This document shows, piece after piece, positions 29,502 to 30,986 of a stretch of DNA of 64,000 nt. The stretch covers positions 37,563 to 101,562 of the forward strand of contig SJBG01000005.1 of assembly GCA_004332195.1 (NCBI GenBank), given 5' to 3'. The position numbers and the translations under genes are program-made. The notes under the pieces are model-generated. The model searched no databases and was not told where the DNA came from. It saw nothing but the letters and a program-made list of their open reading frames with translations. Source of the stretch: Desulfobulbaceae bacterium. Its GTDB lineage: Bacteria; Desulfobacterota; Desulfobulbia; Desulfobulbales; Desulfurivibrionaceae. How positions within the stretch are numbered: position 1 is the stretch's first letter; each line of letters opens with the position of its first letter.

Positions 29502-30986
29502 GTGGCCAAAACCATCTCCATCGACCCGGTAACCCGCATCGAAGGTCATGCCCGAATTTCACTCTTTCTTGAAGATGATGGAACGGTGTACGATTGCCGC
29601 CTCCATATCGCCCAGCTCCGGGGCTTTGATGCCTTCTGCGTCGGACGTCCGTTGGAGGAAATGCCGGCCCTGACCGCCCGGACTTGCGGGATCTGTCCGG
29701 TGAGCCATCTGCTGGCCTCGGCCAAGGCTTGTGATGAACTACTGGCCGTGCGGATTCCACCGGCAGCTCAACGTCTGCGGCGGCTGCTCAACTATGGTCA
29801 GTTGGTGCAGTCCCATGCCTTGAGTTTTTTTTATCTCTCCGCCCCCGATCTCTTGCTGGGAATGGATTCCGACCCGAAAAAACGTAACATCTTCGGGGTG
29901 GCTCAGCGTTTTCCCGAGGTGGCTCGGGCGGGAGTCGCACTGCGTCGTTTCGGTCAGCAAATCATCGAACGTTTGGCCGGCAAAAGAATTCATCCCACCT
30001 GGGTGGTGCCGGGTGGGGTCAGCCGACCGTTGAGTCGAGAAAATCAACAAGCTATCCTGGCTGAACTGCCGGAGACGTTAAAAGCAGCCCGGAAAAGCCT
30101 ACGACTTTTTCCGGATCTTTTGTCCTGCTTTGCCGATGAAATTGCCAATTTTGCCAACTTTCCCAGCCATTACCTGGCTTTGGGCGGCCCCGCGGGGATG
30201 CTGGAATATTACGACGGCCCTCTGCGGATGATCGATGAGCGGCGGCAAACGGTTTTCAGCGAACCATCGCCCTCCCGCTACGGCGTTCATCTGGGCGAAG
30301 CGGTGGAGCCGGACAGTTACCTGAAGTCCCCCTATTACCGACCATTAGGCCCCAAGGCCGGTTTATATCGCACCGGCCCCCTGGCTCGACTCAACGCGGC
30401 CAGCGCCTGCGGCACCCCCGGGGCCGATGAAGCTCTGATCGCCTTTCGCGCTTTGGCCCCGACGGGCATGGCAGTTCAAAGCTCCTTTTATTACCACTAC
30501 GCCCGGCTGATCGAAATAATTCACAGTCTGGAAAAAATCGGGGAGCTGCTGGCCGATCCCGTGATCTTAGAAAACCGAGTCCGGGCCACGGCCGACGCCA
30601 ACGACCCGGAGGGGGTGGGGATTTGTGAGGCCCCCCGTGGCACCCTAATTCATCACTACCAGATTGATGATCAGGGGCGAATCAGCTCAGTCAACATGAT
30701 CATCGCCACCGGTCACAATAACCTTGCCCTTAACCGCGGCATTCTCCAAGCGGCACGGGCTTTTATTGGCCCGGCAAAGCCTCAAGCCTGGGATCAAACA
30801 ACGACCGCTGAACCTGTAACCGGCAAAATCCAAGGATCAAACCGGGGCGAGAGCGGGCGGCGAAGAACGGGACCGGGACCGCAGGCGCAAATCAGAGAGG
30901 GTCTGCTCAATCGAATCGAGGGCGTGATGCCGCTGGCGGTGGAATTGCGCCGCCGGGAAGACGGAGCATTGATCGGCAATGTTTGA
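29502..30986 (+). CDS. hoxH: HoxH-like group 3 [NiFe]-hydrogenase large subunit lacking the L2 motif (orphan, possibly a pseudogene)
   Basis: [18 protein letters not shown], L1 motif [28 protein letters not shown]. No DPCxxCxxH before the end: NRIEG runs straight into VMPLAVEL. Confidence 0.85.
   Translation: [494 protein letters not shown]

Follow-up and report, generated by a model that had tools for sequence, protein, structure and literature searches.

An open hoxH reading frame without its L2 metal-binding motif, probably a very young pseudogene, in a genome-reduced Desulfurivibrio

The hoxH locus

The window, as we call the whole 64,000-nucleotide stretch of DNA analysed here, belongs to a 1.66-Mb genome (G000) assembled in 21 contigs, estimated to be 100% complete and placed in the same genus as Desulfurivibrio alkaliphilus. 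It contains hoxH, a fully open frame of 494 amino acids that begins with a GTG start codon (Table 1). The genes around it are arranged in the order dnaK-grpE-EamA-CA, a spacer of 460 bp that holds a MITE, hoxH, an HNH gene, mnmE and yidC. In the closest relative (L005) the order is dnaK-grpE-CA-PLD-hoxEFUYH followed by hypEDCFBA, and in D. alkaliphilus the hydrogenase genes read hoxE-F-U-Y-H; HoxY and HoxEFU are encoded beside hoxH in relatives L003 and L005.

Table 1. Features of the hoxH locus, in window coordinates
Feature	Coordinates	Strand	Remarks
Secreted beta-carbonic-anhydrase-like (CA-like) gene	28205-29041	-	divergent from hoxH
Intergenic scar, 460 bp	29042-29501		separates hoxH from the divergent CA-like gene
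Second short repeat, ~57 nt	29272-29328		just 5' of the MITE
MITE, 143 nt, palindromic	29327-29469		located where relatives have hoxEFUY and a PLD-like gene
Ribosome-binding site GAGAGG	29488-29493	+	8 nt 5' of the GTG start; position homologous to the hoxH ribosome-binding site in relatives
hoxH remnant, open 494-aa ORF	29502-30986	+	descended from a group 3d [NiFe]-hydrogenase large subunit; L2 missing
L1 motif R60-T-C62-G-I-C65-P-V-S-H69	29679-29708	+	intact, residues 60-69
Low-complexity insert	30771-30896	+	residues ~424-465; predicted disordered, pLDDT <50
Deletion junction GAG GGC GTG ATG (E473-G-V-M476)	30918-30929	+	from comparison with relatives
Former C-terminal extension (MPLAVELRR...)	30927-30983	+	removed by the protease in relatives; now fused directly to the preceding helix
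mnmE	31460-33016	-	low-complexity insertion near residue 440

The MITE, which the earlier note had seen just ahead of the gene, indeed ends about 33 nt before the hoxH start. Its DNA is predicted to fold into a hairpin of -39.6 kcal/mol (z = -8.9). About 99 near-full copies are scattered through the genome and none were found in eight congeners, so the element represents a lineage-specific burst that accompanied genome reduction. Copies of the short repeat beside it, 98% identical, occur at two positions on contig C16 of the same genome (C16:63467 and C16:37436). The spacer contained no remnants of hoxE, hoxF, hoxU or hoxY, as a sensitive tblastn search of its 460 bp returned only noise (E above 0.03), and no match to the sigma-70 consensus was found in it upstream of hoxH. 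With this deletion scar on one side and a rearrangement breakpoint on the other, hoxH stands as an island.

Two neighbouring genes have peculiarities of their own. The carbonic-anhydrase-like protein lacks zinc ligands, reading LADADFR and GNSDSRA, and we considered this as a sign of local decay; the idea was rejected, as the 56%-identical ortholog in L005 shows the same replacements (LADSDARI, GNSDSKS), and both would belong to a ligand-less family conserved in the clade. MnmE carries a proline/aspartate-rich low-complexity insertion (..DPAGDPAHDPARNPARN..) that is missing in four congeners and inside which a strain variant, A439T, falls.

Identity of the hoxH product

The product matches the [NiFe]-hydrogenase large-subunit family PF00374 at 3e-25, establishing homology to large subunits, and PF27537 (HoxH) is among its precomputed Pfam domains. 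Among solved structures it matched PDB 7t2r_D (E 1e-135) and 5xf9_D (E 2e-114), both alignments covering residues 5-423 and both ending at 423; these matches to solved HoxH structures are decisive for assigning the frame, by descent, to group 3d HoxH. The predicted structure tells a similar story, folding confidently over residues 1-423 and with low confidence thereafter. The best-scoring NCBIfam model was VhuA (NF041785), at 370 bits against a cut-off of 800 and hence below it. A search of 5.8 billion proteins recovered as closest relatives, at 66-70% identity, P0002 from an ENA metagenome, P0003 from D. dismutans, P0004, and P0005 from D. alkaliphilus; identity to Desulfurivibrio HoxH over the full length is 67-73%. 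The intact parts of the gene are as the earlier note had described them: the frame, the ribosome-binding site and L1 were all found, and R60, C62, C65 and H69 of L1 fall in invariant alignment columns.

Loss of the L2 motif

In [NiFe] hydrogenases the C-terminal L2 motif supplies two of the four cysteines that hold the Ni/Fe centre, as well as the cleavage site of the maturation protease. Codon-level comparison with the closest relatives bore out the suspicion that L2 is missing in frame by about 17 codons: exactly 51 nt (17 codons) are absent between GAG (30918-30920) and ATG (30927-30929), and with them the DPCxxCxxH sequence that provides the two C-terminal Ni/Fe cysteines and the histidine marking the endopeptidase cleavage site. 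In the relatives Ala-Val precedes the deleted segment (5' side), and Gly with a variable residue follows it (3' side). The slip between Gly-Val repeats that had been proposed as the origin of the deletion is a conjecture, and at most a GTGAT-type microhomology at the junction is conceivable.

The search for other L2-less homologs, suggested as a check, showed how unusual this allele is. Of the 120 best homologs, 117 have a canonical L2, the exceptions being the window's own cluster, P0061 and P0104, and L2 is kept in all five congeners that have hoxH. No L2-less homolog was found outside the window's species-level lineage among the 120 best homologs, in the congeners, or in junction scans of metagenome and genome contigs. 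P0061 and P0104 are group 3d HoxH homologs with an odd L2: one stops at ...CYDP, where selenocysteine or truncation is possible, and in the other serine takes the place of the second cysteine (DPCLSSSTH).

Within the window's own species-level lineage the L2-less junction recurs. It is present in a second NCBI assembly (P0001, one amino acid different), in metagenome scaffold BBPD01005567 (L012/L028) and in a Logan contig of SRR21439977 (L013, 99.1% nucleotide identity). Scans for the exact junction returned BBPD01005567 as the sole match among metagenome contigs and no match among genome contigs. Since SNPs differ among them, the four sources sample one species-level population independently. 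In L012 hoxH seemed at first to be rearranged, but this was rejected as a lesion: the scaffold has a gap of Ns there whose ends overlap.

The low-complexity insert that had been reported just upstream of the missing motif is real, and it is no part of the damage. P0002-P0005 and genomes G004-G006 have inserts at this site that vary in length and sequence, while in G003 and G008 the usual short linker is found there and no insert. Because D. alkaliphilus and D. dismutans have it in variable form, as do two metagenome relatives, the insert is not peculiar to the window gene and is a shared, variable trait of this Desulfurivibrio clade, not a lesion.

Hydrogenase partners and maturation genes

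Neither hoxY, hoxFU nor a protease gene lies next to hoxH, as the earlier note had claimed, and the genome search that it called for extended the result: tblastn, PF01058 and PF01750 searches found no Hox-type HoxY, HoxEFU or HoxW anywhere in the genome. Proteins of family PF01058 are limited to NuoB and a VhuG-like subunit; the latter, the one hydrogenase small subunit encoded, shares 28% identity with HoxY and sits in a cluster of its own. The single PF01750 (HycI) protease gene is inside an Mvh-type cluster on contig C1, and hyp genes are found on C16. A scan of the genome in six frames for DP[C/U]xxCxxH detected no separately encoded L2 peptide; its one match belongs to the Mvh-type large subunit. 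Three features that define a working group 3d subunit are consequently missing from this gene and its genome, namely L2, HoxY/HoxEFU alongside, and a dedicated HoxW endopeptidase.

The other [NiFe] hydrogenase of this organism is of the Mvh/Vhu type (C1:113537-115960; L002 556-2960; L030), with genes in the order HycI protease, a 135-aa ORF, the VhuG-like small subunit and the large subunit. L2 of its large subunit reads DPUMSCATH and contains an in-frame TGA, at which ORF callers cut the protein (...AYDP), which indicates a selenocysteine [NiFeSe] hydrogenase. It appears to be the organism's only intact [NiFe] enzyme.

On contig C12 (39460-46340; L029) we noted genes for CooS (prismane/CO dehydrogenase), NuoE-like and NuoF-like proteins and formate dehydrogenase alpha. 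The NuoEF-like genes were examined as candidates for HoxEFU and rejected, since they are located between CooS and a putative selenocysteine FdhA. This FdhA is split into ORFs of 355 and 538 amino acids, with a predicted selenocysteine TGA likely at the split.

Age of the inactivation

Synonymous sites are saturated at about 70% amino acid identity, and a protein relative-rate comparison was used in place of a codon-level branch dN/dS. From pairwise identities and maximum-likelihood trees, the terminal branch of G000 accounts for 0.20 of the HoxH tree, compared to 0.33-0.37 for DnaK and YidC and 0.25 for MnmE. Beyond the deletion, about 137 columns are conserved at 97% or more, and the protein departs from three of them (T37A, E43D, V291T), a number within the range of intact homologs. 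Because the HoxH branch is not lengthened and few conserved columns are violated, HoxH was under normal constraint for most of the history of the lineage, and its inactivation is recent.

Near-identical strains provide a view of what has happened since. Among them hoxH has 5-7 nonsynonymous and 4 synonymous variants and the flanking genes have 5 of each, giving a pN/pS of about 0.4-0.55 for hoxH versus about 0.3 for the flanks, values that rest on 9-11 variants and are compatible with neutrality or constraint. T37A, in the window, alters a residue kept in 117 of 119 homologs, and P55S, in L012, one kept in all 119; the nonsynonymous variants of the flanking mnmE and yidC are at variable positions. 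In L013 there is an apparent +1 A frameshift in hoxH at about 30569, seen in one short-read contig. The variants at invariant residues and the L013 frameshift would fit relaxed constraint.

Genome size and Hox in the genus

Congener genomes span about 1.8-3.1 Mb, and those at least 99% complete are 2.7-3.1 Mb. The 99%-complete genome of one congener (G002) yielded no HoxH match, indicating that Hox is dispensable in the genus.

Interpretation

We interpret this frame as most probably a very young pseudogene, the relic of a group 3d Hox hydrogenase in a genome-reduced Desulfurivibrio. It has lost residues essential to its ancestral function and also its obligate partners, a combination expected of a young pseudogene. 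The partners hoxEFUY were deleted from an otherwise syntenic locus, where a MITE now lies, and a second hit, the in-frame deletion, took half of the metal site. This deletion probably came about through slippage or microhomology involving short repeats spaced 51 nt from each other. That the frame is still open would be due solely to the youth of the lesion, which has left stops and frameshifts little time to accumulate, and an open 1.5-kb frame is not improbable at about 1% neutral divergence. Deprived of two metal ligands, of its electron-relay subunit and of the NAD module, the product would be unable to bind a NiFe centre, to pass electrons on, or to be a hydrogenase. Counted against the pseudogene are the open frame of 494 codons, the preserved ribosome-binding site, and conservation beyond the deletion that equals that of functional relatives.

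These same observations are what a non-catalytic role would lead one to expect. A HoxH without L2 might be kept under selection as a metal-free scaffold, binding protein or sensor, in parallel with NuoD and the Ehr subunits and their loss of the NiFe cysteines, and its clean in-frame deletion, the confidently predicted fold of residues 1-423, the three violated columns and the unaccelerated branch agree with that idea. Yet L2-less homologs are confined to one species-level lineage, every partner is gone with no new one encoded next door, the upstream region has no promoter-like site, and invariant residues are altered in a gene that appears frameshifted in one strain; moreover, recency explains the good conservation equally well, and we regard selection for such a role as unlikely, with a small share of the probability. 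Far less credible is an artefact of assembly or consensus in an organism that carries an intact hoxH. The genome is a draft in 21 contigs, which leaves some room for error, but the identical junction in four sources that differ by SNPs makes assembly collapse unlikely, a unique coding stretch of 51 nt offers assemblers no repeat to collapse, and the hoxEFUY partners are absent even though the genome is estimated to be complete; this reading is very improbable.

A hydrogenase subunit that still works, its missing ligands coming from a separate VhuU-like peptide or from the Mvh-type small subunit, can be given the lowest probability, close to nil. Precedent exists in the F420-non-reducing hydrogenase of Methanococcus, where the large subunit is split and the small gene VhuU supplies the motif that VhuA lacks; the naturally L2-less VhuA is the NCBIfam model scoring best against the frame, albeit below its cut-off, and the genome does contain hyp genes and one HycI protease. 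Against this, the sole DP[C/U]xxCxxH motif in six frames is that of the Mvh-type large subunit itself, the one small subunit of a hydrogenase in the genome is distant from HoxY and has its own cluster, and the large subunit is split in no relative. The earlier note had left two readings side by side: the freshly inactivated gene is favored by the loss of L2, the loss of partners, recency and the strain variants, and the metal-free protein with another role found no positive evidence. A very young pseudogene thus remains our preferred reading, and the case is one of ordinary gene decay in a reduced genome.

The main use of this result is as a warning for annotation. The frame is open, hydrogenase profiles recognise it, and public databases list its intact relatives as 'Ni/Fe hydrogenase subunit alpha', so automatic pipelines would probably assign to this organism a group 3d NAD-linked hydrogenase, an enzyme that it would be unable to make. 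The locus also offers a snapshot of reductive evolution in a lineage of free-living type, in which an operon has been cut to one gene and a second hit has fallen on the catalytic motif. If a retained function were nonetheless true, this would be an unusually young re-use of the hydrogenase fold, caught early in a transition like the one from which NuoD-type subunits arose.

Comparison with known systems

The window gene resembles HoxH of D. alkaliphilus and D. dismutans, which belongs to bidirectional NAD-linked hydrogenases encoded by hoxEFUYH, in start position, ribosome-binding site, L1 and the kind of low-complexity insert, and its C-terminal extension, MPLAVELR, is near-identical to theirs; it differs by the absence of the 17 codons with DPCxxCxxH and of hoxE, F, U and Y alongside. 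Residues 5-423 align end to end with the large subunit of NiFe-HydABCSL (PDB 7t2r chain D) and with the NAD-reducing HoxH (PDB 5xf9 chain D), but the C-terminal metal-binding strand of these structures has no counterpart in the window protein. Like VhuA of Methanococcus, the protein is a large subunit without its C-terminal motif; a separate gene provides the motif there, and none was found here. NuoD/Nqo4 of complex I and the Ehr subunits are hydrogenase-fold descendants of [NiFe] large subunits that lack the NiFe cysteines, and the window protein is similar to them in having a hydrogenase fold without a complete NiFe site. Those subunits, however, are ancient, widely conserved and encoded in membrane-complex operons, whereas the allele described here is limited to one lineage and has no partners. 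A parallel to the process is Frankia, where loss of the [NiFe] hydrogenase Hup is reported during genome reduction (PMC11879354), alike in that hydrogenase loss goes with a shrinking genome. Frankia Hup is of another hydrogenase group and from another organism, and the Desulfurivibrio locus would represent an intermediate stage, with one gene still open but crippled.
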